The notes under the pieces were generated by a model, which did not search any database, was not told the DNA's origin, and worked only from the letters and a program-made list of their open reading frames with translations. Shown here piece by piece: positions 2,951-41,475 of a stretch of DNA of 64,000 nt (the stretch's first letter is position 1; each line of letters starts with the position of its first letter). The stretch spans positions 407,526,001 to 407,590,000 of the forward strand of contig CM126202.1 of the NCBI GenBank assembly GCA_052327205.1. The letters run 5' to 3'. The position numbers and the translations under genes are program-made. Source of the stretch: Somniosus microcephalus (taxonomy: Eukaryota).

Positions 2951-3149
2951 TGCTGTTGGGAGGGTGTAAACAAAAATGGCAGGGGGTTGGGAACCTGTGC
3001 AGGGAGAGAGAGGGGAAAGGGAAGCAAGGATAGAAACAAAAGACAGGAAGGAGAAAAGCAAAAGTGGAAGGCAGAGAAATCAAGGGTGTAAATCAAACAG
3101 GGCCACAGTACATAATAATTCTAAAAGGACTAAGAGTGTTAAAAAATCA

Positions 3150-5965
3150 AGCCTGAAGTGTCTTAATGCGAGGAGCATTCATAATAAGGTGGATGAATTA
3201 GCTGCGCAAATAGATATAAACGGATATGATATAATTGGGATTACGGAGACATGGCTCCAGGGTGAACAAGACTGGGATTTCAACATCCAGGGGTATTCAA
3301 TATTCAGCATGGACAGGAAAAAAGGAAAAAGGGTGGGGTAGCATTGCTGGTTAAAGAGATTAACACAACAGTAAGGAAGGATATTAGCTCTGATGATGTG
3401 GAATCTGTATGGGCAGAGCTGAGAAATACCAAGGGGCAGAAAACATTAGTGGGAGTTGTATTCAGGCCTCCAAACAGTAATGCTGAGGTTGGGGATGGCA
3501 TTAAACCAGAAATTAGAGATGCGTGCAATAAGGGCACAGCATTTATCATGGGTGACTTTAATCTACATATAGATTGGGCTATCCAAATTAGTAACAATAC
3601 TGTGGAGGAGGAATTCCTGGAGTGTATACGGGATGGTTTCCTGGACTAATATGTCGAGGAACCAACTGGAGATCAGGCCATCTTAGACTGGGTATTATGT
3701 AATGAGAAAGGATTCATTAGCAATCTTCTTGTGCGAGGCCCCTTGGGGAGGAGCGATCATAATACGATAGAATTCTTCATTAAAATGGAGAGTGAAGTAG
3801 TTGACTCAGAGACTAGGGTCCTAAATTTAAATAAAGGAAACTATGATGGTATGAGGCATGAGTTGGCTAGGATGGATTAGGGAACGTTACTTAAAAGGGT
3901 TGACGGTGGATAGGCAATGGCAAACATTTAAAGATCGCATGGATGAACTACAGAATTTGTTCATCCCTGTTTGGTATAAAAATAAAACAAAAAGGGTGAC
4001 TCAACCGTGGCTAACAAGGGAAATTAGGGATAGCATAAGATGCAAGGAGAGGACATATAATTTGGCCAGAAAAAGCAGCAAACCTGAGGATTGGGAGTAG
4101 TTTAGGATTCAGCAAAGGAGGACAAAGGGATTAATAAAGAGGGGGGGAAATAGATTATGAGAGTAAGCTTGCAGGGATCATAAAAACTGACTGTAAAAGC
4201 TTTTATAGATATGTGAAGAGAAAAAGATTGGTGAAGTCAAGCGTGGGTCCCTTGCAGTCAGAATCAGGGGAATTTATAATGGGGAACAAAGAAATGGCAG
4301 ACCAACTAAATACATACTTTGGTTCTGTCTTCACAAAGGAGGACACAAATGACCTCCAAGAGACGTCGGGGAACATAGAGTCTAATGAGAGGGAGGAATT
4401 GAATGAAATCAGTATTTGTAGGGAAATGGTGTTAGGGAAATTGACGGGATTGAAGGCCAATAAATCCCCAGGGCCTGATAATCTACATCCTAGGGTACTT
4501 AAAGAAGTGGCCCTAGAAATAGTAGATGCATTGCTGGTCATCTTTCAAAATTCTATAGACTCTGGAACAGTTCCCATGGATTGGAGGGTAGCTAATGTTA
4601 CCCCACTGTTCAAAAAAGGTGGTAGAGAGAAAACGGGGAATTATAGACCGGTAAGCCTGATATCGGTAGTGGGGAAAATGCTAGAGTCCATTATAAAAGA
4701 TGTAACAGCAGAGCACTTGGAAAACAGTGACAGGATCGGACAAAGTCAACATGGATTTACAAAAGGTAAATCATGCTTGACTAATCTACTGGAATTTTTT
4801 GAGGATGTAACTGGTAGAATAGATAAGGGAGAACCAGTGGATGTGGTGTATTTGGACTTTCAGAAGGCTTTCGATAAGGTCCCGCTTAAGAGATTAGCGT
4901 GCAAAGTTAAAGCACATGGGATTGGGGGTAAGGTACTGTCTTGGACAGAGAACTGGTTGGCAGACAGGAAGCAAAGAGTTGGAATAAACGGGTCTTTTTC
5001 CGAGTGGCAGGCAGCGACTAGTGGGGTACCGCAGGGATCGGTGCTAGGACCCCAGCTATTCACAACATATATATAAATGATCTAGACGAGGGAACTAGAT
5101 GTAATATCTCCAAGTTTGGAGACGACACAAAGCTGGGTGGGCGTGTGTGCTGTGAGGAGGATTCAGAGAAACTCCAATATGATTTGGATAGGTTGGGTGA
5201 TTGGGCAGATGCATGGCAAATGCAGTATAACGTGGATAAATGCAAGGTTATCCACTTCGGTGGCAAAAATAGGAAGACAGATTATTATCTGAACGGCAAT
5301 AGATTGGGAAAAGGGGAAGTGCAATGAGATCTGGGTGTCCTTGTGCACCAGTTGCTGAAAGTAAGCATGCAGGTGCAGCAGGCGGTTAAGAAGGCAAATG
5401 GTATGTTGGCCTTCATAGCGAGAGGATTCGAGTACAGGAGCAAGGATGTCTTGCTGCAGTTGTACAGGGCCTTGGTGAGACCATACCTTGAGTACTGTGT
5501 GCAGTTTTGGTCGTTTTGGTCGCCTTATCTGAGGAAGGATGTTCTTGCCATGGAGAGAGTGCAGCGAAGATTCACCAGACGGATACCTGGGATGGCAGGA
5601 ATGACGTATGAGGAGAGATTGGGTCGATTAGGCTTATATTCGCTAGAGTTTAGAAGAATGAGAGGGGCTCTCATTGAAACTTATAAAATTCTAACAGGAC
5701 TTGACAGACTAGATGCAGGAAGGATGTTCCTGATGGCGGGGGAGTCCAGAACCAGGGGTCACAGTATAAGGATAAGGGGTAAGCCATTTAGGACTGAGAT
5801 GAGGAGGAATTTCTTCACCCAGAGAGAGTGATGAACCTGCGGAATTCTCTACCACACAGGGCAGTTGAGGCCAATTCATTAAATATATTCAAGAAGGAGT
5901 TGGAAATATTTCTTGAGGCTAAAGGGATCAAGGGATATGGAGAGAAGGCAGGAACAGGGTACTGA
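3150..5965 (+). pseudogene. CR1 ORF2 endonuclease-reverse transcriptase, fragmented
   Basis: APE motifs NARSI, GITETW, MGDFN; RT motifs KSPGPD, YLDFQKAFD, GVPQGSVLGP; C-terminal LEYCVQFWSP. Confidence 0.92.
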
Positions 5966-6059
5966 ATTTGGATGATCAGCCATGATCTCATTAAATGGTG
6001 GAGCGGGCTCGAGGGGCCGAATTCACTACTCCTGCTCCTATCTTCTATGTTTCTATGTA

Positions 6060-10575: not shown

Positions 10576-11670
10576 GGAACATACGAACAATGATGGACAG
10601 GTAAAGACCATCTGGTCTATCGAGCCTGTCCCACACAATTACAATACCTTGTGTATCACAACATATACACTCCATCCCACCTAAAACCATGTGATCTCCT
10701 GGGAGAGGCAAAAAATTTTTTTTTTTAAACCCAGGCCAATTTGGGGGGAAAAAATCTGGGAAATTTCTCTCTGACCCATCTAGGCAATTGAAAGGGCCCT
10801 GGTGAGACCACACCTGGAGTATTGTGTACAGTTTTGGTCTCCTTACCTAAGGAAGGATATACTTGCCATAGAGGGAATGCAACGAAGGTTCACCAGACTG
10901 ATTCCTGGGATAATGGGATTGTCCTATGAGGAGAGATTGAGTAGACTAGGCCTATATTCTCTGGAGTTTAGAAGAATGAGAGGTGATCTCATTGAAACAT
11001 ACAAAATTCTTACAGGGCTTGACAGGGTAGATGCATGGAGGATGTTTCCCCTGGCTGGGGAGTCGAGAACCAGGGGTCACAGTCTCAGAATAAGGGGTCG
11101 GCCATTTAGGACTGAGATGAGGAGAAATTTCTTCACTCAGAGGGTGGTGAATCTTTGGAATTCTCTACCCCAGAGGGCTGTGGAGACTCAGTCGTTGAGT
11201 GTATTCAAGACAGTGATCGATAGAGTTTTGGATATTAAGGGAATCAAGGGATATGGGATAGTGCAGGAAAGTGGAGATGAGGTAGAAGATCAGCCATGAT
11301 CTTACTGAATGGCAGAGCTGGCTCGAAGGGCCAAATGGCCTACTCCTGCACCTATTTCTTATGTTCTTATGAAACTAGTCCAGGAGATCACTCTGGCCCT
11401 GAATTCCTTGCAGTACCTACCTTCTGTAAGAGGTGATCTCCGCCCCAGCCAGAAACAGGTCCAGCTCTCGCCTGAAAGAATTCAGCGAGCCCGCGCCACC
11501 GCTCGAGACGGCAGCCTACTCCAGAGGTTCACTATTCTCTGGGAAAAGAACCACCTCCTGACATCTAACCTAGATCTGGCCTTATACAACTTAAATTTGT
11601 GATCCCTGGTCCTCCCTAACCTATTTAATAGAAACAAACTGTCAGCTGGAACACAATCTATTCCCTTCAT
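10576..11670 (-). mobile_element. CR1 3' fragment (second family), interrupted by the 10794-11370 insertion
   Basis: RTRDHKFKL..RRWFFSQRIVNLW at 11482-11670; tail at ~10576; tgaaa duplicated around the nested insert. Confidence 0.75.
10794..11370 (+). mobile_element. 5'-truncated CR1 3' end
   Basis: ORF 10802-11299 = ORF2 C-terminus; tail ttcttatgttctta. Confidence 0.92.
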
Positions 11671-12316: not shown

Positions 12317-13292
12317 GGCCTAGAAATTCAGATGGTTTGCGCCACCCGTTACCACCATGAATTGGTAAAAAAAAGTAAACCAGCGCTTTTCCGCCAGCTG
12401 GTGGCAGGTCCCATGGCAGCAGCCATTTTTCGGTAGGTCGCCAGCACTGCCGTTACCTGCCATCGGCGAAAGTATTTTAATGAGCCGGAGTGTGACATGA
12501 AATGGCGTACAACGCCGAGTTGACGCCAGCTCATCTGTTTTGGAGTTCACTGCACCCACTGCCGCCCACTCTAAATCACACCAGTGAGTGCTGTTGCTGA
12601 AAGATGTTTCAGCAGCGTTAACAGCCATGAGGTGTTTGACAGGACTTAGGAGGATGGACGCTGACAAGTGGAAAACACCTCAGATTGATGCCAGAACTTC
12701 AAACGTCTCCTTTGCCAAGGTTATTCTTCAAAACTTTCAATTTTTGCTCACCCCCTAGCAAATCTGGACTCAACTGCTTAAGATTTTAAAGAATCATAAA
12801 TAATTTATTCAAAATTCCATAGCCAATTATTAATCAAATAATAATATTGTGTCGAGTATGTAAGACCCACTAAATGCTGCCATGATGACTACACATTTAA
12901 ACACTTTCAAGAGTAACCAATGGGGAAAGATTAGTGTGACAGAGAACACAGATGCATTCATTCCATAAACTATTAAAAAATCCACCAACATCGGGTGGCA
13001 GCTAATATTTTTGGAGCAAGTACAGCAACTGTTCGGGACGCTCCTTTCTTCCCGCTCCCCTACACTGCAAGCGGGAGACAGAGGTGATCTTTGGCCTCCT
13101 TCTGAGATTAGCGCAGCAAAGAGCGCGTTCCACTAGAAAATCACTGCCACACTAGAAAATCACCGCCACGCTGATGTTAATGAGCAGACAGTGCCAAAAT
13201 GCCGGTACTGCCTGTGGTCTCTCAGCTGGCGGCCGTTATCCTTGGCCGCCAATGTTACCGGCAGGTTTCCAGCATTCCCCAATTTCTAGGCC
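12317..13292. mobile_element. Harbinger-type non-autonomous element
   Basis: Perfect 12-bp TIR ggcctagaaatt / aatttctaggcc, the same TIR as 51342-52039. Confidence 0.75.
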
Positions 13293-15800: not shown

Positions 15801-17063
15801 GCCACAGTTTGAAGTCAGCAACAACTCAAAATGAGATCATGGATCATTTCTCAGCCTCCTGCACACCCACCCAACACACTCCTAGGAGAGAGGGATTACC
15901 AAAACAAACTACCGTATCCAACTGTCCCAAGATTATCATAGTCGAGAATCATACAGCACAGAAGGAGGCCATTCGGCCCATCGTGCCTGTGCCGGCTCTT
16001 TGAAACAGCTATCCAACTATTCCCACTCCCCTCCTCTATCCCCATTTCACTATTTAAATTTCTTTCCACAATGAGCCTTTAAAATGTTTTCCTGAAGATG
16101 CTGATTCCTTCTGATACAGAACCATAGCTGCTGAATACTCTCTGCATAGGTGCAATCACTGGGCCGGATGAGGGGGGTTACACGCCACCACATATTTTTG
16201 ACATGGGTTATCTCCTAATTAAATCTTGGAATTACTCCGCCCCCAAACTCTTGCTGGGGTATGGATTCAACAAGTGTCACCGGCCATCCACTATCTCAAC
16301 CAACTGGTCCTTCTTCACGTGGGGGCCGAGACAGTGGGTGTCATTAGGATATTCGACCATGGTTGGAACATCACAGCTGAGCCTTAACCTGACATCCACA
16401 CAGTCTAGCAAGGGTCACTGAGCAGCAATCAAAAATGAGAGCCTTCATTAATTGTTCCCCCTCTCTAGCCTAGGGACACTGAGGTAATTTTAATACAAAT
16501 CATTTTCATTCATCAGTATTGGACTGCACCCAAATCTTGAACAACATCCAAAGGCCACATCAAATTCGATAAGTGGCAACTTTCAAATCATGTATTTGCC
16601 ATCCAGCCTATGTTAGGATTGACATTTTACTTCATTTTATATATCACTAGCTGGAGTACCCGGCATTGCCAAGGGAACTGAAGAACCCTCTGCCATGTTT
16701 ATAAAACTGTTTATAAAACTGTTGGGATTGAAGAACTCTTCCTAAGCACTCAGGAGGTGGTTCTTTAACTTCGTTTTTTGTTAATGGGGATCGCCAGTAG
16801 CCATATACTCCAGGTTTTATAGTTTTGGGTATGTCTCGCCTGGTCAACAGCTTGCCGTGCCTGAGTCTGGTCAGAAGTCTCTGAGGCTCTGGCTTAGGTA
16901 TGTCTCGCCTGGTCAACAGCTTGCCGTGCCTGAGTCTGGTCAGGAGTCTCTGACTCCCCCCTCCCTCTCTGTCCCCCTCCCTCCCTCACCCTCTCTCCCT
17001 CCCTCCCTTCAGGGGAAGGAGAGAGAGAGAGGGGGGAAGGAGAGAGAGAGAGGGGGAAGGAGA

Positions 17064-19281
17064 AATATGCAAAAAACTGGAAAAGCTCGAAATGGCCATA
17101 AAAGATAACCAAAACCCGCTAGACTCCATAATAACAGAAAAAGAACTAGTTGAAAAACTCAAGGACCTGCGACCAGGAAAAGCTTGCGGTGCAGACGGCA
17201 TACTAAGCGAGATGATTAAACACACAGACGATAAAATGAAACTGGCTATCCTAAAACTCTTCAACTTGGTTCTGAGTGTCGGTTACTTCCCTGATATCTG
17301 GAACAAAGGACTCATAATGCCCATATACAAAAGTGGGGACAAAGTCGACCCAAATAACTATCGAGGCATCTGTGTAAACAGTAACCTGGGGAAGGTATTC
17401 TGTAGTATCATAAACAAAAGACTTATAAACTTCCTTGAGGAGCACAATGTCTTGAGTAAAAGCCAAATTGGATTCCTGCCAAACTATAGAACATCAGATC
17501 ATATCTTCACCCTACAGACCCTAATTGACAAACACGTTCATCAAAACAAAAGCAAAATCTACGCATGCTTTATAGATTTCCAGAAGGCTTTCGATTCCAT
17601 CTGGCACGACGGTTTATTCCTGAAACTTATCGAAAGCGGGGTAGGGGGAAAAACATATGATGTAATTAAATCAATGTATACAAACAACAAATGTGCAGTT
17701 AAAATTGGAGAAAAACAAACAAAATACTTCCCACAGGGGCGGGGGGTGACGCAGGGCTCGCCCATCTCACCGACACTCTTTAATATTTACATAAATGAAT
17801 TGGCAAAACTACTTGAACAATCTACAGCACCTGGCCTCACCCTATATGAATCCAAGGTTAAATTCCTCCTCTATGCAGATGACCTGGTTCTGCTGTCACC
17901 AACTAAGGAGGGTCTACAGCAGAACCTGGATCTGCTGGAGTCGTTCTGCCAGACCTGGGCCCTGACAATAAATCCCCAAAAAACCAAAGTCCTTGTGTTC
18001 CAGCAAAGATCCAGACATCAGGGACCCAAAATAAATTTCACACTAGGAACAACCAAAATTGAACAAACCACTAACTACACATACTTGGGCTTAAAAATCA
18101 GTTCTACGGGAAATTTTCATCTGGCTGTGAATGAACTGAAAGAGAAAGCAAGAAGGGCTTTCTATGCCATTAAAAAATCAATCCAAATAGAAATCCCAAT
18201 TAGCATTTGGCTCAAAATTTTTAAATCAGTAATTGAACCAATGGCAGTGAGGTGTGGGGACTGCTAACACAACAAGAATTTGCAAAATGGGACAAACACC
18301 CAATTGAGGTCCTACATGCAGAATTCTGTAAAAGTATCCTCCGGACTCAAAGGAAAACCGTAAACAATGCATGCAGGGCAGAACTAGGCCAATATCCATT
18401 AATAATCACTATCCAAAAAAGAGCCACCAAATTTTGGAAACACCTAGAAATGAGCAACCCCCAATGCTATCATTACGAAGCCCTGAAATGCCAAGAGAGG
18501 ACCATAAAGAAGAATACCGTCAGTCAACTAGTCCTGGGACTCAGTGAAGTAACTACTAACACTACTAACAATAACCAGCCCCAGGACAGTGACAGCGTAA
18601 CACAAAGAATTCGACCCAACACAATCGTCGCTAAGCAAAAGGAAAAATATCTGTCATATTGGACAGAAACAACAAAAACCCAAAGCAAACTCAATTGCTA
18701 CTTGGCCCTAAACAGACAATACAACATGGCTGATTACCTGACCATGGTAAAGGATAGCAAACTGAGAAAAACCTTGACAATGTACAGACTTAGTGAACAT
18801 AGCCTGGCGATCGAAAAAGGTAGACACAGGCAGACCTGGCTACCAAGAGAGGACAGGATATGCTCTCACTGCAGTCAGGGAGTGGTGGAGACAGAGATGC
18901 ACTTCCTCACAGCTTGTAGAAAATATCAGGGCATAAGGGAGAATTTCTACCCAAAATTCACAAAAATATGCCCGGAATTCAGAAATTTGAATGACGACCA
19001 AAAACTCCCATACCTACTAGGGGAAGAGAGAAATTGTGTAACCTTAGTGGCACACTATGTTACAGCTTGCCATAAACAGAGGGACAACCACTAAATATAA
19101 GAAAAGAGTATATACAAATTATATGAAGTATATTTATACACTCAGGGATATATCTGTTTATACACTGTATGGATAGATCTGTATTTTTGTGTACAACCAT
19201 GAATGTTTTTCGATGTTTTGGCAACATAAGATGTACCTTGTCATGCCAATAAAGCGATTTGAATTGAATTGAAATTGAATT
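17064..19281 (+). mobile_element. 5'-truncated RTE-X-like non-LTR retrotransposon inserted in a GA satellite
   Basis: RT plus C-terminal RLSEHSLAIEKGR..RICSHC..ETEMHFL..C motif; AATAAA + (TTGAA)n tail running into gagagag. Confidence 0.85.
17092..19094 (+). pseudogene. RTE-X reverse transcriptase ORF, one frameshift (~18245), no endonuclease domain
   Basis: ORFs 17092-18267 (FIDFQKAFD, QGSPISP, LYADD) and 18252-19094. Confidence 0.88.
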
Positions 19282-19447
19282 GAGAGAGANNNNNNNNNNN
19301 NNNNNNNNNNNNNNNNNNNNNNNNNNNNNNNNNNNNNNNNNNNNNNNNNNNNNNNNNNNNNNNNNNNNNNNNNNNNNNNNNNNNNNNNNNNNNNNNNNNN
19401 NNNNNNNNNNNNNNNNNNNNNNNNNNNNNNNNNNNNNNNNNNNNNNN

Positions 19448-19906
19448 GGGGAAGGAGAGAGAGAGGGGGAAGGAGAGAGAGAGAGGGGGAAGGAGAGAGA
19501 GGGGGAAGGAGAGAGAGAGGGGGAAGGAGAGAGAGAGAGAGAGGGAAGGAGAGAGAGAGAGGGAAGGAGAGAGAGAAGGAAGAGGAGAGAGAGAGAGGGA
19601 AGGAGATAGAGAAGAGAGGAAGACACCCCGGGGAAGGGGTTGGACTCAGAGCCCGGCCCGGTGTCCCAGAGCCCCCATGCGCGGCATAGCACCTCAGGCC
19701 CGGCCGGAGTGACCCCAGCTCAGCTCCCGCTACGGCCCGCTGCCGGAGAGAGAGAGAGAGGGAAGGAGAGAGAGGGGGAAGGAGCGAGAGAGAGAGGGGG
19801 AAGGAGAGAGAGGGGGAAGGAGAGAGAGAGAGAGGGGGAAGGGGAGAGAGAGAGGGGGGAAGGAGCGAGAGAGAGAGGGGGAAGGAGAGAGAGAGAGGGG
19901 GAAGGA
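19448..19906. repeat. (ggggaaggagagagaga)n satellite with assembly gaps
   Basis: Directly visible; N runs on both sides. Confidence 0.9.
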
Positions 19907-20705
19907 NNNNNNNNNNNNNNNNNNNNNNNNNNNNNNNNNNNNNNNNNNNNNNNNNNNNNNNNNNNNNNNNNNNNNNNNNNNNNNNNNNNNNNNNNNNNNN
20001 NNNNNNNNNNNNNNNNNNNNNNNNNNNNNNNNNNNNNNNNNNNNNNNNNNNNNNNNGAAGACACCCCGGGGAAGGGGTTGGACTTAGAGCCCAGCCTTGG
20101 TGACCCAGAGCCCCCATGCGCGGCGTAGCGCCTCAGGCCCGGCCCGAGTGACCCCAGCTCAGCTCCCGCTCCGGCCTGCCACCGCCGCTCCCCTGCTCGA
20201 TGTCTTTCGGGCTCTCAGGCCACACGGGTGTATCTGTCTCTGTGTGTGAATGCTCACTGTCTATCGGGCTCTCGGGCCGCGTGGTTGTCTCTGTCTATGT
20301 CTGTGTATCTGTTTTCCCAGTCCCGCACTCACGGCAGGCTGCAGGATTAGGCCCCACCCACACACGCCATGAAATGCCCCCCATGATGCACTGCGCTTCC
20401 CCCGTAGGACTGGTCAACCATCACATCACTCAACGCTAATGAGCGGATTTTGTCCGTTTTTTGAAAGTTTTCTGTATACTGTCCAAGTAATCTTTGTCTG
20501 ACCAAAAAGTAAATATGCCTATGACACTCCCCTAATCATAAGCTTTCTTTTGATATAACATATGTGCAGGTAAGCTCTATAACCTTTGAGTTTACCGCGG
20601 ACATACACACAGACAGACAGACAGACAGATCCATTTATATATATAAAATAATAACTAGCTGGAGTGCCCGGCGGTGCCGAGGGTTTTTTGAGGGCATGTT
20701 GTTGT

Positions 20706-22330
20706 TGGAAGAGAGTGAGAGAGTGACTGGGGGGAAGAAAGAGAGCGACTTGGGGGAAGAGAGAGAGCGACGGGGGGAAGAGAGAGAGCGACTGGGGGAA
20801 GAGAGAGAGCGACTGGGGGGAAGAGAGACAGCGACTGGGGGAAGAGAGAGAGCGACTGGGGGGAAGAGAGCGAGCGACTGGGGGGAAGAGAGAGATGACT
20901 GGGGGGAAGAGAGAGACGACTGGGGGAAGAGAGAGAGCGAAGGGGGGAAGAGAGAGAACGACTGGGGGCAAGAGAGAGAGCGACTGGGGGGAAGAGAGAG
21001 AGCGACTGGGGGGAAGAGAGAGAGTGACGGGGGAAGAGAGAGAGCGACTGGGGGAAGAGAGAGAGCGACTGGGGGGAAGAGAGAGAGAGCGACTGGGGGG
21101 AAGAGAGAGAGAGAGCGACGGGGGGAAGAGAGAGAGCGACTGGGAGGAAGAGAGAGAGCGACGGGGGGAAGAGAGAGAGCGACTGGGGGGAAGAGAGAGA
21201 GAGCGACTGGGGGGAAGAGAGAGAGTGACTGGGGGGAAGAGAGAGCGCGACTGGGGGGAAGAGAGAGATGACTGGGGGGAAGAGAGAGACGACTGGGGGA
21301 AGAGAGAGAGCGAAGGGGGGAAGAGAGAGAACGACTGGGGGCAAGAGAGAGAGCGACTGGGGGGAAGAGAGAGAGCGACTGGGGGGAAGAGAGAGAGTGA
21401 CGGGGGAAGAGAGAGAGCGACTGGGGGAAGAGAGAGAGCGACTGGGGGGAAGAGAGAGAGAGCGACTGGGGGGAAGAGAGAGAGAGAGCGACGGGGGGAA
21501 GAGAGAGAGCGACTGGGAGGAAGAGAGAGAGCGACGGGGGGAAGAGAGAGAGCGACTGGGGGGAAGAGAGAGAGAGCGACTGGGGGGAAGAGAGAGAGTG
21601 ACTGGGGGGAAGAGAGAGCGCGACTAGGGGGAAGGGGGGAAAGGGGGGGAAAGGGGGGGAAGGGGGGAAAGGGGGGAAAGGGGAGGGGAGGAAAGGGGAG
21701 GGGAGGGGGGGAAAGGGGGGAAAGGGGAGGGGAGGGGAAGGGGGAAAGGGGAGGAAAGGGGAGGGGAGGGGGAAAGGGATGGGGAGGGGGGAAAGGAGGA
21801 GGAAGGGGGGGAANNNNNNNNNNNNNNNNNNNNNNNNNNNNNNNNNNNNNNNNNNNNNNNNNNNNNNNNNNNNNNNNNNNNNNNNNNNNNNNNNNNNNNN
21901 NNNNNNNNNNNNNNNNNNNNNNNNNNNNNNNNNNNNNNNNNNNNNNNNNNNNNNNNNNNNNNNNNNNNNNNNNNNNNNNNNNNNNNNNNNNNNNNNNNNN
22001 NNNNNNNNNNNNNNNNNNNNNNNNNNNNNNNNNNNNNNNNNNNNNNNNNNNNNNNNNNNNNNNNNNNNNNNNNNNNNNNNNNNNNNGGGAGGAGCGAGGG
22101 GGAGGGAAGGGGGCGGGGGGAGGGGGAGGAGGGAGGAGGAGAGGGGGGGAGGAGGGAGGGAGGGGGGAGGAGGGAGGGGAGCGGGAGGAGGGAGGGGGAG
22201 AGGGGGGAGGGGGAAGAGGGGGGAGGGGGGGAGGAGGGAGAGCGGGGGAGAGGGGAGGGGGAGGGGAGAGGAGGGGGAGGAGGAGGGGGAGGGGAGGGGA
22301 GGGGTGGGGGAGGTGGGGGAAGGAGGGGGG
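20706..22330. repeat. ~22-bp (gagcgactggggggaagagaga)n satellite with a ~373-bp higher-order repeat, then G/A low complexity
   Basis: The variant block at ~20895 recurs at ~21268. Confidence 0.92.
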
Positions 22331-22645
22331 AGCCAGCAGACCCTCTCCCCTCTGCCGGCGATGGCTCCGCTGAGCTCCGTGCCGCCCCACGCACTGACAT
22401 GCCGAGCGCAGCGCCCCGGTCAACCCGAGCCCCGCCCTCCCGAGGCCGGGCCGGCTTGAGACGGCCGATTGCGGCTGGCCGGGCCCGGTTGCCTTGGTAA
22501 CCCTCCTCCCCTCTCCGCTTCCTGATCTCCGGGACCGGGCCTGAGCGGCTTGAGACGGCCGATTGCGGCTGGCGAGCCCAGTTGCCGGGGTAACCCTTTC
22601 CGCTCCCCCTCCCCTCCCGAGCCCGGATTCCTCCTGGTCCTCGCC

Positions 22646-23543
22646 TCAGGTGGCACTGGCACTGGCAGCTTCAGCGCGTTGAGCCCGAGTTGGTGCTGCT
22701 TCATCTGAAAGTGGGAGGTGGAAGAGTGGCTTTAGCAAAAGGACAGGTTTGCTGAAAGGCATGCCAGATTGCGGCAAGGCTCTGACATGGCTGTACACTG
22801 AGGATGCATGCTGGCGGGGGGACCAAGTGGAAGGCAACAGGTGGAAAAGGTGAGAGTCTTACCCTCGCTGTCAGTAATTGGGTCGGCAGATGCAGTGGTC
22901 ACTGGACCAGACAGACGTCCTCCAAGTATCTGGTGCACTCTCTGCTCCAGATCCGTGAGAGTGACCACTTGTGCAGGTCCGCCACCGGTTCGACGCTGCT
23001 CCTTTCTAATCTGTGCCATCTTGGACTGCAGGGGAAAGAAGGGGAGGTTCTGTTACATGAGGCCTTGAGACCTCATCGCATGCCCCCCATGGTGCAAGAG
23101 CCCTTACATGAGGCCTTGAGACCTCATCGCATGCCCCCCATGGTGCAAGAGCCCTTACATGAGGCCTTGAGACATCTGTCCATGTGTGTGGCCAGAAAGG
23201 GCCATGGGTGCATACTGACAGATGGCCATTGGGGCATCATTGCAGCAGGGTGCCCGAAGTCAGCTGCAGATGGAGGGAAGCACAAGTTTGGTAAACCATC
23301 ACTCACCCTAACGATCCGTGTGAGGTCATTGAATTTCTTCCTGCACTGAACAGGGGTCCTGGTCGCCATGCTGCTGGAATTCACCCTCACAGCAACCTCC
23401 CTCCAAGATCGTCGATAAGCCTTCTGATTTGGCCTCTTGCCATTATCCGGATACAGGACCTCTCGACGGTGTTCAACTGCAGCCACCAAGTGGTCCAGAG
23501 CCTCAGTGCTGAAGCGCTCTGCTCTCTGCCTAACCTTCTCCAT
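22646..23543 (-). CDS. Myb/SANT-like DNA-binding protein (Harbinger-derived), 3 exons 23543-23307, 23025-22863, 22704-22646, ~152 aa, C-terminally short
   Basis: FSTEALDHL..W..VA..VN..RTPVQCRKKFNDL; exon 2 KMAQIRKEQRRTGGGP..LTDLEQRV; canonical GT/AG sites, compatible phases (0,1), no internal stop. Confidence 0.75.
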
Positions 23544-23902
23544 AATGCACAAGTTTCTAACGCCAGACAAGGGCGAGCGCCGAATCTGAGGCCTACAGGG
23601 CGTTGGGTGTTTAAGCTCAGTCTGACTGACCCGCCCCTTTAAGAGCCGGCCGGCGCCTGTAGGTCTCGTGCTTTCCCGTAATTGAGTTCACCTGCGCTGC
23701 ACCCGTCTGCGTCGATATTGAGTAGCGCCTGGCCTTTTGCGCCTTAAGAGCACCATGCAACGGCTGATTTAGCGCCTCAATCCCCTTTAGGGGCGATGCA
23801 ACCCAATATCGCGCCAGTCGGCGATAAGTTTCGTCTGGCTATAAACTTTGCGCATCGCCAGTTCTAACGCCTCAAGCGGGGCTATACCCAATTTCTGGGC
23901 CT
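22650..23902 (-). mobile_element. One-ended Harbinger fragment inside Helitron B
   Basis: TIR-like aatttctgggcc at ~23891-23902; Helitron homology to unit C resumes at tgtgttttaaaagcaac; no second TIR and no transposase. Confidence 0.7.
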
Positions 23903-23969
23903 ATGTGTTTTAAAAGCAACTTTTTTTTTAAAGACGCAGAAAGCGGGAAAAAGAAATGAAAAGTTTGGA

Positions 23970-24200
23970 ATCAAGATGGCAGCGACTCACCTCGGTTCAG
24001 AACGATAAGGCCCGCCCACACACGCACCGATTGGTCGACCGTCAGGTCACCGAAGCGTAGGATTGGTCAATCGTCCCATCACTCAACTCTAGGAGGGCTC
24101 GCCCGCAAGCGCCAGGAACCCACCCCCGCCCCCGCCACGCAGCGATTGGTCGACCGTCGGGTCACTCGACCGTACGATTGGTCGAACTCGACGTCACTCG
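23970..24200 (-). promoter_or_regulatory. Promoter-like module in Helitron B: 4 CCAAT boxes, GC boxes, CRE-like and YY1-like motifs
   Basis: gattgg at 24029, 24061, 24144, 24176 (pairs 32 bp apart); ccgccc; acgtca; aagatggc. Confidence 0.55.
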
Positions 24201-24474
24201 ATGCTAATGAGCGGATAATGAGCGGAATGTTGAACGTTTTTTGGATACCGTGGGCGCAATTTTTGTCTCGCCGAAACGTAAATACGCTTATGACAGTTCT
24301 GGAATCGTAAGCTTTCTTTTGATGTAACACACGTGTAGGTACGCTCTATAACTTTCGAGTTTATACAATACAGACAGACAAACAGACAGACGGAATGACA
24401 GACAGACAGATCGACCGCTTTATATATATAGATGCCCGGCGGTGCCGAGGCTTTTTCGAGGGCATGTTGTTGTT

Positions 24475-25915
24475 GGAAGAGAGAGAGCGACTGGGGGGGA
24501 AGAGAGAGAGCGACTGGGGGGGAAGACAGAGCGCGACTGGGGGGGAAGAGAGAGCGACTGGGGGGGAAGAGAGAGAGAGAGCGACGGGGGGAAGAGAGAG
24601 AGAGAGCGACTGCGGGGGGAAGAGAAAGAGAGAGCGACTGGGGGGGAAGAGAGCGAGAGAGCGACTGGGGGGGAAGAGAGAGAGCGACTGGGGGGAAGAG
24701 AGAGAGCGACTGGGGGGGAAGAGAGAGAGCGACTGGGGGGGAAGAGAGAGAGCGACTGGGGGGGAAGAGAGAGAGCGACTGGGGGGGAAGAGAGAGAGCA
24801 ACTGAGGGGAAGAGAGAGAGCGACTGGGGGGAAGAGAGAGAGAGAGCAACTGGGGGGGAGAGAGAGAGCGACTGGGGGGAAGAGAGAGAGCGCCTGGAGG
24901 GAAGAGAGAGAGCGACTGGGGGGAAGAGAGAGAGCAACTGGGGGAAGAGAGAGAGCGACTGGGGGGAAGAGAGAGCGCGACTGGGGGGAAGAGAGAGAGC
25001 GACTGGGGGGAAGAGAGAGAGCGACTGGGGGGAAGAGAGCGAGCGACTGGGGGGAAGTGAGAGAGCGACTGGGGGGAAGAGAGAGAGCGACTGGGGGGAA
25101 GAGAGAGAGCGACTGGGGGGAAGAGAGAGAGCGACTGGGGGGAAGAGAGAGAGCGACTGGGGGGAAGAGAGAGAGCGACTGGGGGGAAGAGAGAGAGCGA
25201 CTGGGGGAAGAGAGAGAGCGACTGGGGGAAGAGAGAGAGAGCGACTGGGGGGAAGAGAGAGAGCGACTGGGGGGAAGAGAGTGAGCGACTGGGGGGAAGA
25301 GAGAGCGACTGGGTGGGAAGAGAGAGAGCGACTGGGGGGAAGAGAGAGAGCGACTGGGGGGAAGAGAGAGAGCGACTGGGGGGAAGAGAGAGCGAGAGAC
25401 TGGGGGAGAGAGAGAGAGAGACTGGGGGAGAGAGAGCGAGAGACTGGGGGAGAGAGAGAGCGAGAGACTGGGGGAGAGAGAGAGAGAGAGAGACTGGGGG
25501 GGAGAGAGAGAGAGAGAGACTGGGGGAGAGAGAGAGAGAGAGACTGGGGGAGAGAGAGAGAGAGAGAGACTGGGGAAGAGAGAGAGAGAGACTGGGGGAG
25601 AGAGAGAGATAGAGACTGGGGGGGAGAGAGAGAGAGACTGGGGGAGAGNNNNNNNNNNNNNNNNNNNNNNNNNNNNNNNNNNNNNNNNNNNNNNNNNNNN
25701 NNNNNNNNNNNNNNNNNNNNNNNNNNNNNNNNNNNNNNNNNNNNNNNNNNNNNNNNNNNNNNNNNNNNNNNNNNNNNNNNNAGAGAGACGGGGGGGAAAG
25801 AGAGAGAGAGAGACTGGGGGAGAGAGAGAGAGAGAGACTGGGGGAGAGAGAGAGAGACTGGGGGAGAGAGAGAGAGACTGGGGGAGAAGAGAGAGAGAGA
25901 GAGACTGGGGGGAGA
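24475..25915. repeat. GA-rich ~22-bp satellite of Helitron C
   Basis: Same unit as in B, grading to gagactgggggagagaga. Confidence 0.92.
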
Positions 25916-26734
25916 CTCACCGCCGCCGCCAACTACTCGCAGCACGTTTGCAGCCGGCCGTCTGATGGCGCGGCGCTCCGAGGTCAGGTAAGGAGGAGGG
26001 CAGCGGGTAGACTGGAGCCCTGGGCCTGGCCTCCCGCTCAGAGCCCGGGAGCCCCGGGGCGGTGGCACTGCCTGCAGCAGGCAGAGAGCAGCCCCGAGTC
26101 CCCCCTGCGTGAGGAGGAGGAGGGGCTGCGGCGGAAAACGCTGCCCTGCTCACAGCCATCAAAGCAGGAGCGTGTTTCTTCCTCCGGCCGGCCAATCGCG
26201 GCCTGGCGCTTCAGGCCCGGCCGGGCTCTCGGGACGAGACTGAACACGGGGGCGGGGTCAACAGCCCTGGGTGGACGTGCGCCGTGCGCGTGCCTCCGGG
26301 GCTTGTTGTTGTTGGCGGTTGCACTGAGGCTGCAGCGCGAGTGCGAATGAAGTTTGAGCAACTTCCAAGCAGATTGAGTTGTCCTGCCGCAGCCTCAGTT
26401 CCGCCCCACCAGCCTTTACAAAGATAGCGGTGGTGGCTATGTTCGGCTCAGACCCGCCCGGCCAGCCTTTAGAAAGATGGCGGCGATTGCGGGCCGCTTG
26501 TTGAGTGGGACGGGAGGTGCCTAGCTCGGGCGTGGCTGGGCAACAGAGGCCGAGGCTTCAAGGCCTAGAAAAACGGTGAAAGGTAGGAAAATTAATGAGG
26601 TTAGAGAAAAGATTTACAAATTAATTAATTTTTTTTTAAAACAATTTGTGTTTTAAAAGCAACTTTTTTTTTGCTGGAAATCTAGGTTTGAAAATAAACA
26701 CGCAGAAAGTGGGAAAAAGAAATGAAGAGTTAGG

Positions 26735-26960
26735 AATCAAGATGGCGGCCACTCATCTCAGCTCAGAAGGTTTAGGCCCGCCCACACACGCACCGATTGG
26801 TCAACCATCAGGTCACTGAACTGTAGGATTGGTCAATCATCACGTCACTCAACTCTAGGATGGCCCGCCCGCACACGCAATGAACCTGCCCCCGCGATGC
26901 AGCGATTGGTCAACCGTCAGGCCGCTCGACTGTACGATTGGTCAACCTTCACGTCACTCA
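26735..26960 (-). promoter_or_regulatory. Promoter-like module in Helitron C
   Basis: gattgg at 26795, 26827, 26904, 26936; YY1 aagatggcggc; cacgtcac twice. Confidence 0.55.
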
Positions 26961-28319
26961 ATGCTAATGAGCGGATAATGAGCGGAATTTTCAACATTTT
27001 TTGGATAACGCCTGAACAATTTTTGTCTGACCAAAAAGTAAATACGCTTATAACCATTCCAGAATCATAAGCTTTCTTTTGATATAACACATGTGTAGGT
27101 ACGCTCTATAACTTTTGAGTGTATAGAGTACATACAGACAGACAGACGGAAGGACAGACAGACAGACAGAAGAGCTATTTTATACATATAGATTATTAAC
27201 ATTTGTGCTCAGGATCTTTGTCTCAAATTCAAAGAACTGAGTGTCCTACTCCTTTCTTCCTCATGTGCTTATCTAGCTTCCCCTTAAATGCATATGGGAA
27301 AGCTAGATAAGTTACATCAGTTACTAGCAGCACTGCAGCTGGGTAGCTTCAGTGAATGAAAGTGAATGCATTGAATTACACCACTAAGTTATTTTGGTCA
27401 TCCGTTGCCCAGCATGTGTGCCTTCTGACTTTCTCCAGTTGAAAGGGCGCGCTAGCAATCTCTTCCAAGCTTCTTTCACTGTAATGAGAGAAGCTCCCGA
27501 GATCAGAAATCAGTGTTGGAACACTCTCTTTTGGGACCCAGTAACAATTGAATCCACAACAAAAGTTCACAAGTTTGAATCCCAGCACTGGCTCATTCAT
27601 CAATTGACTTTGTTTATACGCTGGCACAGTCTCACCAATTCTCAACTAGTTCTCCAACATAATATTAAGTAATTACTTCGGGTGCAATAAAAAATACACC
27701 TGAATTCCACTGCCTGCTGGCTAGTCTCACAGTGACATTGCTGGTAAGCACGGGAAAGTACACAGACACAAGAAGGCATGGCAGTAAGAGTAGCTGGCCA
27801 AAGGGAGAGGAACATTTAAAAAATGTTTTGTAAATTTTCAATTTTTGATTCAGAACATGCCTCAACAAGCTCTTTGCCCAGAGTAATACAATCCAATCAT
27901 TGCAAAGATCAATAAAAGCAAAAAGTGAAAGACCACTGAAAAGCTAAACAGCGCACTGGGTGAACAAGTTCACTCTCACTCAGTAGGTGAGGTCCCCATT
28001 GTCCTTTACGTTTAGTGTTTTGTTTAGTCTGTGCTCCACTTGCCACGGGTTAGTGGCTCAGGTTTCATTTCCCTAATTGATCAGGAGATGCAGCATTTCC
28101 TCCTAAGACTGCATCATTTCCAGTGTGTTGACAGCAACAGGAAGAAAAGCAGCCAAGCCAGAATCAACTGAGGTGAGAGAAAATGGGGTATGAATTCCAG
28201 CAGCACTCAAAGGGAAATTCTACACGGTCACTCTGCATTTACCTCCCTCCTAACATTTAACAGTCATACTGATCTACTGGCTCTTTTTGAACTTTTAGAA
28301 GGGGTTCATTTTCTACTCT

Positions 28320-30406: not shown

Positions 30407-30810
30407 CAATTTCAATTTCAATTTCAATTTCAATTTCAATTTTATTGGTCACATAACTAAATACAAGAAGTGTAATCTAGTCGGTGAAATGTTTTTTTCT
30501 TGACGAGCCGAGAGCACCAAGCAGCAAGAACACTTCGCTGCCTGGTACGCACGGAGCTCGCAAGGACGGCAGCCATCTTCATCGGTGCCATCACAAAAAA
30601 ACACATACTGACATATACACGCATACATACTTTAAATATAAATAAAGCAGGCATAAAATAAATAAAAGACATAAAAAGACAGCACATAAAATGAACAATA
30701 ATGTAAAAAAAGTAATTTCTACAGCAATTACATTGATATTTCTACCCAGGCTTCTAGAATAATCTTTGGTTACAGGGTGGCCGCACTGGGAGAGCATCGT
30801 GAGGAACTCA
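30407..30810 (-). mobile_element. Retroposon 3' end with AATAAA + (TTGAAA)n tail (Rex1/Babar-like)
   Basis: (caattt)6 then tattggtcacata; related in style to the 1872 insert. Confidence 0.5.
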
Positions 30811-31071
30811 CAACTTATAATTAAATAAATGTAATTAATTAATTAATTAATTAATTAATTAAATTAAATAAATAAAGTGCCCCCTCAGTCTTTCTCGATG
30901 TTTCCATCTTGGTCTCTTTCGATGTTTCCCCTCTCTCTCTCTCAATGTTTCCTCTGTCTTTCTCGATGTTTCCTCTCAGTTTTTCTCAATGTTTCCCCTT
31001 GGTTTCTTCCACACACCTGACCTGCACATTACCCCTGGCTGTCCAACTTGGCGTCCTGGTAACCGGGTTCC

Positions 31072-31222
31072 GCTCCAGCTCTCATCCTTCAAACTGTCTC
31101 TCCAGCTCTCGACCTTCAAACTGTCTCTCCAGCTCTCGACCTTCAAACTGTCACTCCAGCTCTCGACCTTCAAACTGTCACTCCAGCTCCCGACCTTCAA
31201 ACTGTCTCTCCAGCTCTCGACT
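31072..31222. repeat. 27-bp tandem repeat x5.5, preceded by (TAAT)n and a ~22-bp repeat
   Basis: ctccagctctcgaccttcaaactgtct. Confidence 0.9.
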
Positions 31223-37921: not shown

Positions 37922-39324
37922 TAGAAACATAGAAACATAGAAGATAGGAGCAGGAGTAGGCCATTCGGCCCCTCGAACCTGTTCCGCCATTTATTGAGAT
38001 CATGGCTGATCATCCAAATTCAGTACCCTGTCCCTGCTTTCTCCCCATATCCCTTGATCCCTTTAGCCTTAAGAAATATATCCAACTCCTTCTTGAATAT
38101 ATTTAATGAATTGGCCTCAACTGCCTTCTGTGGTAGAGAATTCCACAAGTTCACCACTCTCTGGGTGAAGAAATTCCTCCTCATCTCAGTCCTAAATGGC
38201 TTATCCCTTAGCCTTAGACTGTGACCCCTGGTTCTGGACTCCCCGGCCATCGGGAACATCCTTCCTGCATCTAGTCTGTCTAGTCCTGTTAGAATTTTAT
38301 AAATTTCAATGAGATCCCCTCTCATTCTTCGAAACTCTAGCAAATATAAGCCCAATCGACCCAATCTCTCTTCATACGTCATTCCTGCCATCCCAGATAT
38401 CAGCCTGGTGAATCTTCGCTGCACTCCCTCCATGGCAAGAACATCCTTCCTCAGATAAGGCAACCAAAACTGCTTACAATACTCAAGGTGTAGTCTCACC
38501 AAGGCCCTGTACAACTGCAGCAAGACAGCCTTGCTCCTGTACTCGAATCCTCTTGCTATGAAGGCCAACATACCATTTGCCTTCTTAACTGCCTGCTGCA
38601 CCTGCATGCTTACCTTCAGCGACTGGTGCACAAGGACACCCAGGTCTCATTGCACTTCCCCTTTTCCCAATCTATTGCCATTCAGATAATAATCTGCCTT
38701 CCTGTTTTTGCCACCAAAGTGGATAACCTCGCATTTACCCACATTATACTGCATCTGCCATGCATCTGCCCAATCACCCAACCTGTCCAAATCATACTGG
38801 AGTTTCTCGGCATCCTCCTCACAGCACACATGCCCACCCAGCTTTGTGTCGTCTGCAAAATTGGAGATATTACATCTAGTTCCCTTGTCCAGATCATTTA
38901 TATATATTGTGAATAGCTGGGGTCCTAGCACCGATCCCTGCGGTACCCCACTAGTCACTGCCTGCCACTCGGAAAAAGACCCGTTTATTCCAACTCTTTG
39001 CTTCCTGTCTGCCAACCAGTTCTCTATCCACGTCAGCACCTTGCCCCCAATCCCATGTGCCTTAACTTTGCACGCTAATCTCTTATGCGGGACCTTATCG
39101 AAAGCCTTCTGAAAGTCCAAATACACCACATCCACTGGTTCTCCCGTATCTATTCTACCAGTTACATCCTCAAAAAATTCCAGTAGATTAGTCAAGCACG
39201 ATTTACCTTTTGTAAATCCATGTTGACTTTGTCTGATCCGGTCACTGTTTTCTAAGTGCTCTGCCATTACATCTTTTATAATGGACTCTAGCATTTTCCC
39301 CACTACCGATGTCAGGCTTACTGG
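37922..39324 (-). mobile_element. 5'-truncated CR1 (RT to tail)
   Basis: ORFs 38647-39303 (FADD) and 38020-38631; (tagaaaca)n tail. Confidence 0.95.
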
Positions 39325-40519
39325 ACTAAGAAAACTGAAGCAAAAAATTGGTGTGCCTCAACTCCAAAAAGTGTACTTCTACTATCCTTGGCCCTGGCGA
39401 GCAAGTGAGAAATGAAGAAAAGTAAGGAAAATGGGCTAAGAGCTCAGAGAGGCCAGAAAAGGGGTATTTTCAATAAATTATGACAATCTGCATTTTACAT
39501 GGACATCATTGTTTCAAACATAATATCCACTGCCCATGTTTGTGGGTAAAAGTTAGTGCAGATTTAGAGTCCTGTGCTTGGCCCAGGTCAGCCAAAGAGC
39601 CAGCACAACTCCGTTTTTCTATGGATGCACTAATGGGTTATACAGTTTCACAGCTTCAAGAATTGCCAACCACTCAGCCAAGACCTTGTGCTGTAGAGCT
39701 GACATTGGGTTGAATTTTAACTCTTACTACATCACCAGCCAAGTGTTCTTGATTGTCTTGTCCAGCTAAATCATTGGTGGAGAGGGAGAGAGGCAAACGG
39801 GGGATGCAAGACAGAGAAATCCTATTTGGCGCCAGGGAAATCAGTCAGCACTATAAAAGTCAATACAATGCCTAATAAAAGCAGACTCCAACCTGTCACT
39901 CGGGTATCATCCAGAGGGAGGATGTAGGTGGACTGGATAATCATTGTTCATTTCTTTGGCAAGTGAAAAGATTTTCACAAAGTAAAAAAACCAACCACAG
40001 CAAGTTGCTGAAATCTCAGGTGTAGGTCACAAGACAATGGTTCATTATTTTGCTGTGATATGGAGTTGCATTTTGCTTCAGTTTAGTATTATAGGATTAT
40101 GATGACTCTGTCAGCTGAGTTTCTGTTATTGATGGGATTCCCAGCTGAAGTAACATTTGTTTTGTGAAATAATATGGTCAGTCTGCTAAGAATAACTCAG
40201 CAAAGCAAGGAGAGATTGTTGCAGCTTTTAGGCGAAGATATGTAGTGGGCTCACAGTCATGTGGATATTTTATCCCGTGTTTATGAGTCTGTATTTAATT
40301 TGTGTAAATTAACATGTAATGGGCTATGCCTTTTGCTGGTTTGTATCTAGTGGGAGTGCCCGTTATATCAATCACCTTTAGATTCTTGCCATAGCATTCT
40401 CATACTGTGCTAGATTCCTGTTCTTTCCCACACTCTGTCTGTCACTTCCTGTCCTGTCCTGCCACTTCTCGACATATCTTTTCCATCTCATCCCATCAGT
40501 CATACCGCAGTGAGAAATA

Positions 40520-41336
40520 GGGGTCGATTTTCCTGGAGCCATCAGGCGGGGTTTCAGGCGTGTGGGGGGGGAAAATCCCGAATTCGGGAGTCCCGACACC
40601 ATCCCGCCCAAAACCCCGCTCCACGCAAGTTTCAGAGGCGGCGGGTACCCGCCCTGCACTGGGACCCGCCGACCCCAGGCGGGAAGGGATTAGTGCCAAT
40701 TAACTGCCTGTTAACAGGTAGTTAACAGGCAGTTTTTAGCCTAATCCCTATTTTGAGGGGTGTCGTGTGGGATTCCCGACGGCTCCAAACCATGCCAGGT
40801 TAGAGCAGGCGGGCCGTCGGGTTGAAGGAGTTGGAGGGGTCGCGATGTCGGTGTTCAGGTGAGTGATGGGTGCATGAGTGCAAAGGTAAGTGTGTTTGGT
40901 GTGTCCAAAGTGTGTAAAGAACTTTTAACTTACCTGTACTTACCTTAACAGCCTTTCTTCCTGTAGGCGTCGAGAGCGCATCACTCAGCCGGCACTTAAA
41001 GCTGAATGGCTGCGATCTGTGAAAAGTGACAGCCTTCAGCTTTGAGTGCTGCTGAGAGTTCTAACTGAGTCTGTGCAGAAGGACTCAGGTTAGAACTCAG
41101 ACTGTCAGTGTTTGGCAGCTTCAAACAGCTGTGAAACACTGATATTTCATCTGTCAAGAACTCTTGACAGATGAAATTGCAGTCTGTGACGTCACCTGTT
41201 GCTGGGTGGCCCTTAATTGGCCTGCTGAGCCCGCTGGGAAAATCGCACGGATTGGCTGGACGTCGATGTAGGCGGGTCTAAAACCCAAAAGTTGTAGTCT
41301 CGCCTTCTTCCCGACAGCTTCGGGAAAATCAACCCC
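40520..41336 (+). mobile_element. Harbinger-type MITE, TSD ATA
   Basis: TIR ggggtcgattttcc / ggaaaatcaacccc; ATA on both flanks. Confidence 0.85.
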
Positions 41337-41475
41337 ATAGACTTTGATTTAATCTCTTGCTGTTCCTTTTTTTTTCATTCCTTTAACTAGTTGAACAACC
41401 TCAGTGGAACGATCTCGGAAGGAGTATGGGAATTCAGGCCAATTCTTCTGGCAAACACAAAGACGCAGACACAAG

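Follow-up and report, generated by a model that had tools for sequence, protein, structure and literature searches.

A 64,000-nucleotide (nt) stretch of the Somniosus microcephalus genome (assembly GCA_052327205.1, contig CM126202.1, positions 407,526,001 to 407,590,000), referred to here as the window, contains a cluster of 10,546 nt made of three units, A, B and C (Table 1). Self-BLAST and alignment placed the three units in the same orientation on the minus strand; coordinates are those of the window, and features lie on the minus strand unless noted. The sequence supports the view that the units are related Helitron1-type elements, all three non-autonomous and belonging to one loose family. 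A 5' block of about 250 nt with a (CTGT)n tract is common to A, B and C, and a 27-nt word of this block occurred three times in the window and in 0 of 100 shuffles. Alignment of the first ~250 nt gave identities of 84% for A/B and 81% for both A/C and B/C, while A and B have 546 nt in common at 86% identity. A and B resemble one another more closely in their 3' tails, identical at 46 of 48 positions, than in their 5' ends, where identity is 86% (p about 0.02), and the last 30 nt of C matched those of B at 25 positions. The homology between A and B begins at TC and that between B and C ends at CTAG, and the flanking sequence beyond is unrelated. Unit C was treated as a decayed relative on the basis of its 81% homology and was not filed as an intact Helitron1.

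We compared the ends of the units with their flanks. The cluster reads A|TC at its 5' outer end (27192) and CTAG|T at its 3' outer end (16647), and the longest direct flank duplication (target site duplication, TSD) was 0 nt for A, B, C, A+B and A+B+C. Where terminal inverted repeats (TIRs) would lie, the longest exact end-to-end inverted match was 4-7 nt across units and combinations (5 nt for A+B). A and B begin with TCTATAT, and C begins with TTTTATATATATAAA, without TC. Neither of the two inner junctions reads CTAG|TC: A ends in ...GCCGGGCA at 24433, 10 nt short of a B- or C-type end, and the TC of B abuts it directly. An 18-nt 3' word ending in CTAG occurred only twice, at 20655 and 16647. 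The flanks of A+B are TAATAA|TTATTA and those of C are TTATTA|TGATAT, so that excising A+B and C leaves the A/T-rich site TAATAA|TTATTA|TGATAT, in which each of the two cuts falls between A and T. The spacer and the (TA)n start of C form a 22-nt A/T-only run (20633-20654) that serves as the 3' flank of B and is the third longest among the 12 runs of at least 16 nt in the window. A hairpin was predicted before the 3' end of each unit, about 11 nt from the end in B and C. Compared with shuffles, the A hairpin gave a z of -2.26 (3/200), and the counts for B and C were 47/200 and 106/200; longer windows were no better, and most of the differences between the B and C hairpins affect the loop or positions beyond the stem.

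An earlier note on this DNA, made from the sequence alone, had described a head-to-tail trimer of non-autonomous Helitrons with a common 5' block starting TC, a common 3' hairpin and outer ends A|TC and CTAG|T without a TSD. The ~250-nt block in all units, the outer ends and the Helitron identity, here supported as Helitron1-type, agree with that description. Three units on one strand also stand, but an exact head-to-tail order does not, in view of the 0 of 2 CTAG|TC junctions, the TTATTA spacer and the 10 nt by which A falls short; with imprecise junctions and units 14-19% apart, an exact tandem array is not supported. The block starts with TC in A and B but not in C, and the hairpin, although predicted in every unit, exceeds shuffles only in A.

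The class of the elements was assessed against published descriptions, in which Helitron1 (HLE1) has a 5' TC, a 3' hairpin with CTRR and insertion at A|T, and HLE2 has short TIRs of 11-18 nt and insertion at T|T (PMC11417382). A 5' TC was found in A, B and the composite A+B, and was lacking in C alone. CTAG closes B, and hence A+B, as well as C, and A alone is without it. To judge from the flanks, A+B, C and A+B+C each lie at A|T without a TSD, and the 4-7 nt inverted match between the ends leaves no TIR. The features of HLE2 were not found, as there are no TIRs of 11-18 nt and the left flanks end in A, which does not give T|T. Taken as a single unit, A+B has the sequence-readable features of HLE1, with a hairpin that is predicted but weak. 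An open reading frame (ORF) the size of RepHel, whose length is given as 1,401-1,496 aa (PMC12001565, PMC6544945), is absent from the window, in which the longest non-satellite ORF (562 aa) encodes a reverse transcriptase (RT). A search of GTDB genome contigs with the 27-nt word gave 0 matches, and the 546-nt 5' block had no match in phage or plasmid sets; none of these collections holds animal genomes, so that such blanks are to be expected of an animal repeat and are uninformative on copy number.

Satellites and gaps account for about 3.8 kb of the cluster (714 N), a long interspersed nuclear element (LINE) for 2.2 kb, a Harbinger-like fragment for 1.3 kb and the 5' blocks for about 1.4 kb. 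Every unit has a purine-rich satellite; A and B have a 22-nt unit in common, and C has a different unit of 18-21 nt. Within the B satellite, 20712-21634 contains a 373-nt higher-order duplication at 96-99% identity, a sign either that the satellite expanded very recently or that the assembly duplicated it locally. Pairwise tests of homology between the interiors reached the level of at most 1/100 shuffles in 0 of 20 cases, the best being A/C at 2/100, and on these comparisons deep homology among the interiors was rejected. At the same borderline level (2/100), a GC-rich word of 31-33 nt in A (26192-26222) is 82-84% identical to two places in C (20114-20144 and 19675-19707), which may hint at a common ancestral interior. 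The earlier note had seen a GA satellite and a different interior in each unit, and had proposed that cargo is shuffled between fixed termini. The separate interiors are confirmed and a purine-rich satellite is indeed present in each unit, although that of C has its own repeat unit. The shuffling of cargo was overstated, since 3.5 kb consists of two nested transposons and about 3.8 kb of satellite and gaps, and the termini are not fixed, A being without CTAG and C without TC.

The first nested transposon lies in B and carries a Myb/SANT gene. Its Myb/SANT domain matched PF13873 (E=3.6e-10, 40.1 bits against a cut-off of 21.7), and the Atlas top match of the Myb piece was again the PF13873 family (0.90). 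Putative exons, placed from GT/AG words only, end at 23307, span 23025-22863 and start at 22704. A HMMER scan of representatives returned 71 relatives of the Myb piece at 28-55% identity, with the Myb domain mostly N-terminal, and the search found no homologs among longer proteins. The A/B homology ends at 23904, 2 nt before the TIR-like start of the insert, and this breakpoint at the TIR favours insertion into the B lineage over read-through capture. A two-ended TIR element elsewhere in the window (51342-52039) has an end that aligned with this TIR-like start at a score of 44, compared with a maximum of 32 in 1000 shuffles. That element and a second one (12317-13292) are non-autonomous, with ends GGCCTAGAAATT and the TIR type of the B insert; their 3-nt flanks are CAC/CAC and AAA/GAA, respectively. 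Harbinger elements are described as having a Myb-like ORF in addition to TIRs and 3-bp TSDs (PMC9179366). The B insert contains neither a DDE transposase ORF nor a right TIR, and we therefore label it a Harbinger-like fragment and not a member of PIF/Harbinger. The Myb/SANT piece would have reached the B lineage through a Harbinger-like insertion whose right part was later lost. A 10-mer in A (26562-26571) that resembles a right TIR was rejected as the missing Harbinger end, its flank being TTG compared with ATA in B.

The second nested transposon is the LINE in C, whose RVT_1 domain was detected with E=5.5e-42. It is 5'-truncated, has a TTGAA-type tail and lies between stretches of C-type satellite, and these three features identify it as an insertion into C; the satellite beyond the LINE and that across gap 1 (19290-19447) had a cosine of 0.98 in 7-mer profiles. 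The LINE retains two long ORFs with one frame change. Its protein was 67-75% identical to its best matches, the top named ones being teleost (Leuciscus, Sparus), and no chondrichthyan was named among the 120 matches listed. It is possible that the LINE is a young, horizontally transferred element.

We also examined what remains of the interiors. About 1.8 kb of unique sequence is unexplained (25920-26646 in A, 22335-22630 in B, 20057-20345 and its duplicate in C, and the 3' tail of C); it is mostly GC- and CpG-rich and may represent true capture. A Pfam scan of 12 interior frames gave no family at the cut-off and identified no host coding cargo, and Rfam (0 hits) and ARAGORN (0 genes) gave no sign of an RNA-gene or tRNA-headed origin. 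A promoter-like block follows the 5' block in A, with a copy in B (23904-24200) and one partial unit in C. The block shared by A and B and the interior of A are enriched over shuffles in words that we take to be CCAAT, GC-box and YY1-like motifs, and C is not; CRE-half words were counted as well. In the 5' part of B there were four CCAAT words (0/300 shuffles), two GC boxes (1/300), one YY1-like word (6/300) and one CRE-half word (99/300). The counts in A were six GC boxes (0/300 shuffles), two YY1-like words (3/300), five CCAAT words (8/300) and two CRE-half words (11/300), and none of these words was found in C. Splice-donor words were not enriched over shuffles in any of four regions. We selected the motifs once the sequence had been inspected, and the duplication within the block raises their counts, which makes them a lead only. 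Such blocks could be captured host promoters, by analogy with bats, where Helitrons captured the promoters of 15 genes (PMC4224331), or they could be the family's own promoter. In B the block lies directly upstream of the Myb/SANT gene of the Harbinger-like insert in the same orientation. A bolder proposal, which we regard as doubtful, is that the family targets the A/T-rich ends of its relatives, swaps 5' and 3' modules and spreads an unmethylated CCAAT/GC-box/YY1-type cassette, with the Myb/SANT gene downstream of it in B. If so, the locus would hold a mobile, expressed protogene and offer a cartilaginous-fish parallel to promoter capture by bat Helitrons.

Serial insertion is the best reading of how the cluster formed, at a probability of about 0.68: a composite A+B would have landed at an A|T site that lies 6 bp upstream of C, the more decayed relative. 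We infer the following course of events, in which a RepHel transposase encoded elsewhere would move the family in trans. C would have inserted first, at an A|T site, later losing its 5' TC and gaining the LINE in its satellite. B would have entered an A-type copy, probably at another locus, using an A|C or variant A|T step that lies between the hairpin and the CTAG of that copy. Peel-and-paste copying from the TC of A to the CTAG of B would then have mobilised A+B as one, leaving behind the last 10 nt of A; the donor predicted from this would be a copy of A that holds B and has kept CTCCAGCTAG downstream. Finally, A+B would have inserted at the A|T site 6 bp upstream of C, whose (TA)n 5' end would provide the A/T-rich 3' flank favoured by Helitrons. 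The position of B's TC matches the A|C step of an A-type end. Helraiser favours A/T-rich DNA, particularly in the 3' flank, and 46 of its 1,751 target sites are non-AT, chiefly TT, AC and AA (PMC4778049). The placement of B at an A|C step and its A/T-only 3' flank fit these preferences as reported there (PMC4778049). The observed/expected (o/e) ratio of CpG was 1.2-1.85 in the 5' part of B, 0.83-0.89 in A, 0.40-0.68 in C and 0.44 in the window, and among 41 A/B transitions CpG was kept in B for 21 and in A for 4. The CpG ratios and the lost TC of C weakly support C as the first arrival.

Several points weigh against serial insertion. Shuffled sequences fold as well as the hairpins of B and C do. 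The 5' boundary of C is uncertain by 1-3 nt because C has no TC. Insertion at an A|C step would be a minority event, as non-AT targets are rare in the Helraiser data (46/1,751; PMC4778049), and an identical A|B junction would also arise if A had been truncated or had lost 10 nt at a later time. CpG content is no clock if the DNA is unmethylated, and the Harbinger-like insert is one-ended, so that its TSD is not readable. Of the four N gaps in the cluster, numbered here by increasing coordinate, gap 2 (19907-20056) has edges without a direct match (cosine 0.05), and a comparison of edges does not distinguish gap 1 from gap 2 (0.98 compared with 0.97). The evidence comes from one locus, and the collections searched, which hold no animal genomes, yielded no dispersed copy, empty site or RepHel partner.

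The strongest competing explanation, which we still consider unlikely, is that A+B+C was built at a donor locus and arrived as one composite of 10.5 kb, or of about 8.3 kb before the LINE, with the weak terminator of B bypassed and the TTATTA spacer derived from donor-site DNA. The canonical outer ends A|TC and CTAG|T and the weak B hairpin agree with this, and bypass of ends and compound transposition are documented in bats (PMC4224331, PMC4778049). C, having lost its TC, would depend on an upstream 5' end, and a second insertion within 6 bp at this locus would be unnecessary. Serial insertions would nevertheless still be required at the donor, and C is more CpG-decayed than A+B. The spacer is also the exact reverse complement of the 6 nt to the left of A, which fits a continuous host site, although this match is weak and post hoc, with an estimated chance of about 1 in 32. 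One locus cannot separate serial insertion from a single A+B+C composite.

A scaffolding artefact, in which a gap was filled with repeat-only contigs from different Helitron copies and fewer units exist at the true locus, appears very improbable. The region is broken by four N gaps (714 nt), with the result that the trimer does not lie within any single contig, and nothing but repeats makes up the three middle contigs (19448-19906, 20057-21813 and 22087-25648). The inner junctions, A|B as well as B|spacer|C, nevertheless fall inside contigs, and the adjacency of the units is therefore real somewhere in the genome. Satellite subtypes also agree across gaps 1, 3 and 4 (7-mer cosines of 0.98, 0.43 and 0.98), with the satellite beyond the LINE used as the low edge of gap 1, as the interval between LINE and gap is only 7 nt. 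Cross-matches between the A and B gaps gave 0.03-0.04, and the 5' side of A disagrees with the 3' side of B (0.03). For gap 2, the other copy of its 123-nt unit adjoins such a satellite (0.84). The units are moreover too divergent for one copy assembled twice, and misplacement of contigs is unlikely.

The junctions and divergence largely refute a rolling-circle concatemer, in which the trimer's monomers would carry different captured cargo between fixed termini, and we find this reading barely plausible. The common orientation, the adjacency and the shared 5' block speak for it, and tandem arrays derived from Helitrons do exist, such as the four Heli1Xen1 arrays in Xenopus laevis (PMC12001565). 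Neither junction reads CTAG|TC, however; the monomers are not near-identical (81-86% in the 5' block), the satellite and 3' region of C are unlike those of A and B, and the two largest interiors are nested transposons. Given the 14-19% divergence between units and their unrelated interiors, the cluster reflects neither a single rolling-circle run nor one copy assembled twice.

Helentron/HLE2 (DINE-1-like) elements or those resembling MITEs (miniature transposable elements with inverted repeats) can carry a (GTCY)n-type microsatellite and internal satellites. Here, the (CTGT)n tract near the 5' end and the internal satellite arrays recall such elements, to which we nevertheless give almost no credence in view of the 4-7 nt inverted match, the A|T and not T|T junctions and the TC and CTAG ends.

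Table 1. Features of the Helitron cluster (window coordinates).
Feature	Position	Strand	Description
Composite A+B	20655..27192	-	6,538 nt; sole unit with fully canonical Helitron1 ends, A|TC...hairpin-CTAG|T
Unit A	24433..27192	-	5' TC; 3' end cut after the hairpin, an internal pseudo-terminus without CTAG
Shared 5' block, copy A	26930..27192	-	TC, (TA)n, (CTGT)n and a conserved core of ~190 nt
Promoter-like block, A copy	26647..26960	-	Duplicated unit of ~80-110 nt with CCAAT and GGGCGG, then a YY1-like word
A-specific CpG-rich interior	25920..26646	-	GC 62%, CpG o/e 0.83; candidate true capture
A satellite	24475..25916	-	GA-rich unit of 20-22 nt; spans N gap 25649-25781
Unit B	20655..24432	-	Complete TC...CTAG element; TC directly after ...GGGCA of A
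Shared 5' block, copy B	24170..24432	-	CpG o/e 1.85
Harbinger-like insert in B	22630..23901	-	One-ended; TIR-like start GGCCCAGAAATT at 23901, then Myb/SANT gene; right limit approximate
B-specific GC-rich stretch	22335..22630	-	73% GC; 60-nt duplication
B satellite	20717..22334	-	22-nt unit of A plus a G-rich tract; spans N gap 21814-22086
A/T spacer TTATTA	20649..20654	-	6 nt between CTAG of B and C; inferred host DNA
Unit C	16647..20648	-	Decayed 5' end (TT, not TC), 3' end CTAG|T intact; relative by 81% 5'-block identity
Shared 5' block, copy C	20400..20648	-	81% identical to A and B
C interior	19283..20345	-	Tandem pair of 57 nt; GC-rich unit of 123 nt present twice (92%), with C-type GA satellite after each copy; contains N gaps 1 and 2
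LINE in C	17065..19282	+	5'-truncated; RT ORF; TTGAA-type tail; C-type satellite on both sides
C 3' part	16647..17064	-	Satellite remnant, 59-nt duplication, unique tail, weak hairpin, CTAG

The rest of the window is also rich in repeats. ORFs of at least 150 aa outside the cluster were scanned in 15 of 19 cases, and the Pfam matches were to RT, gag-like and GDSL/esterase-like domains. CR1-like LINE copies occur at 1066-6058, 10784-11374, 37927-39328 and 59487-60896, three of them at 92-93% identity; in the first, a 90-nt tandem repeat occupies 1140-1521 and a GDSL/esterase-like ORF lies upstream of the RT. The best named matches of the flanking CR1-like RT were Hypanus (68-74%), Callorhinchus (66-73%), Leucoraja (70%) and Scyliorhinus (61%), and identities to turtles and birds were mostly 50-59%, a pattern in keeping with a cartilaginous-fish host without separating shark from ray. 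A 1.77-kb foldback-like element (40526-42293) has imperfect inverted arms of ~700 nt (79%) and internal palindromes. The stretch 30407-31221, with (CAATTT)6, a (TAAT)n run and tandem repeats of 23 and 27 nt, looks like the body and tail of a further small non-coding element on the minus strand. Near-perfect, isolated palindromes of 72-74 nt lie at 45586-45657 and 50559-50632 (89% and 95%). The window end cuts a long terminal repeat-type element, and the part inside the window (62784-64000) includes a direct repeat of 70 nt (62784-62853 and 63931-64000); its gag-like ORF (63135-63938) matched PF03732 below the cut-off.

We searched the literature, mostly open-access, and found no description of the present family or detailed account of non-autonomous chondrichthyan Helitrons; a search with the 3' words returned only unrelated papers, and a paper on spiny dogfish has Helitrons only in its reference list. 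Multi-terminus Helitrons, in maize and bats, and chondrichthyan Helitron1 are already in print. HELIANO recorded HLE1 in four of eight chondrichthyan genomes (Leucoraja, 11,154; Mobula, 4,818; Hypanus, 1,651; Carcharodon, 1), and its tables list the Repbase entry Helitron-1_CM from Callorhinchus milii (PMC11417382). Helitrons have also been reported in the whale shark (PMC8455134). These chondrichthyan elements match the cluster in HLE1 group and host class, a comparison made by catalogue entry and not by sequence. With chondrichthyan HLE1 already catalogued in the tables cited (PMC11417382), only the present specific family could be undescribed. Its 5' block (26930-27192) and 3' end (20655-20684) provide probes for annotating shark and ray genomes, in a lineage for which the literature searched gave no detailed account of such non-autonomous elements.

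Among other animals, Heli1Xen1 is likewise a vertebrate Helitron1, with non-autonomous copies carrying 5' gene fragments and a few tandem arrays; unlike the present elements, its listed hosts are amphibians, lizards and bichirs, not chondrichthyans (PMC12001565). The arthropod elements Hel-2/MITE01, Lep1 and Hel1/Hel2 also combine a conserved 5' block with variable acquired interiors, although the sizes given for them are mostly 0.15-1 kb (PMC4344730, PMC4038834, PMC6544945). Hel-2 has a (CTGT)n tract near its 5' end, as in the present units (PMC4344730). By eye, the first 14 nt of the spider Ptep_Hel2Ca equal those of B, and several Hel1 3' ends close in CAGCTAG, like B and C. In a short-word look-up, the core word AAAGAAAGCT was absent from five Hel1 supplement files; membership of these arthropod families would call for at least 65-70% identity to a consensus of 134-250 nt.

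The closest architectural likenesses are found in maize and bats. In the maize survey of Dong et al. (2011), 28.7% of helAs were multi-terminus, 99 of 100 internal 3' ends had no intact CTAG, and Helitrons preferred to insert near or inside other Helitrons (PMC3288121). The maize helA thus resembles the shark cluster in its internal pseudo-3' end without CTAG and its stepwise build-up, a likeness judged by architecture; the plant elements, as described, carry recognisable gene fragments, whereas no host coding fragment was identified in the shark cluster (PMC3288121). Helibat and Helraiser of Myotis have TC and CTAG ends and A|T targets, one copy can begin with its 5' end where the 3' end of its neighbour stops, and compound transposition is known; their interiors hold promoters, retrotransposons and DNA transposons, a combination like that read or proposed for the present cluster (PMC4778049, PMC4224331). 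Capture was shown there through donor genes and empty sites, and the likeness here is again judged by architecture. Among vertebrates, promoter capture has been shown for vesper bats (PMC4224331) and capture of 5' gene fragments for Xenopus (PMC12001565), and the shark locus would matter more if its CpG-rich interiors were captured host promoters, amplified and active. Set beside the maize and bat systems, the cluster is a clear example of a known process, in which Helitrons stack at the ends of their relatives.

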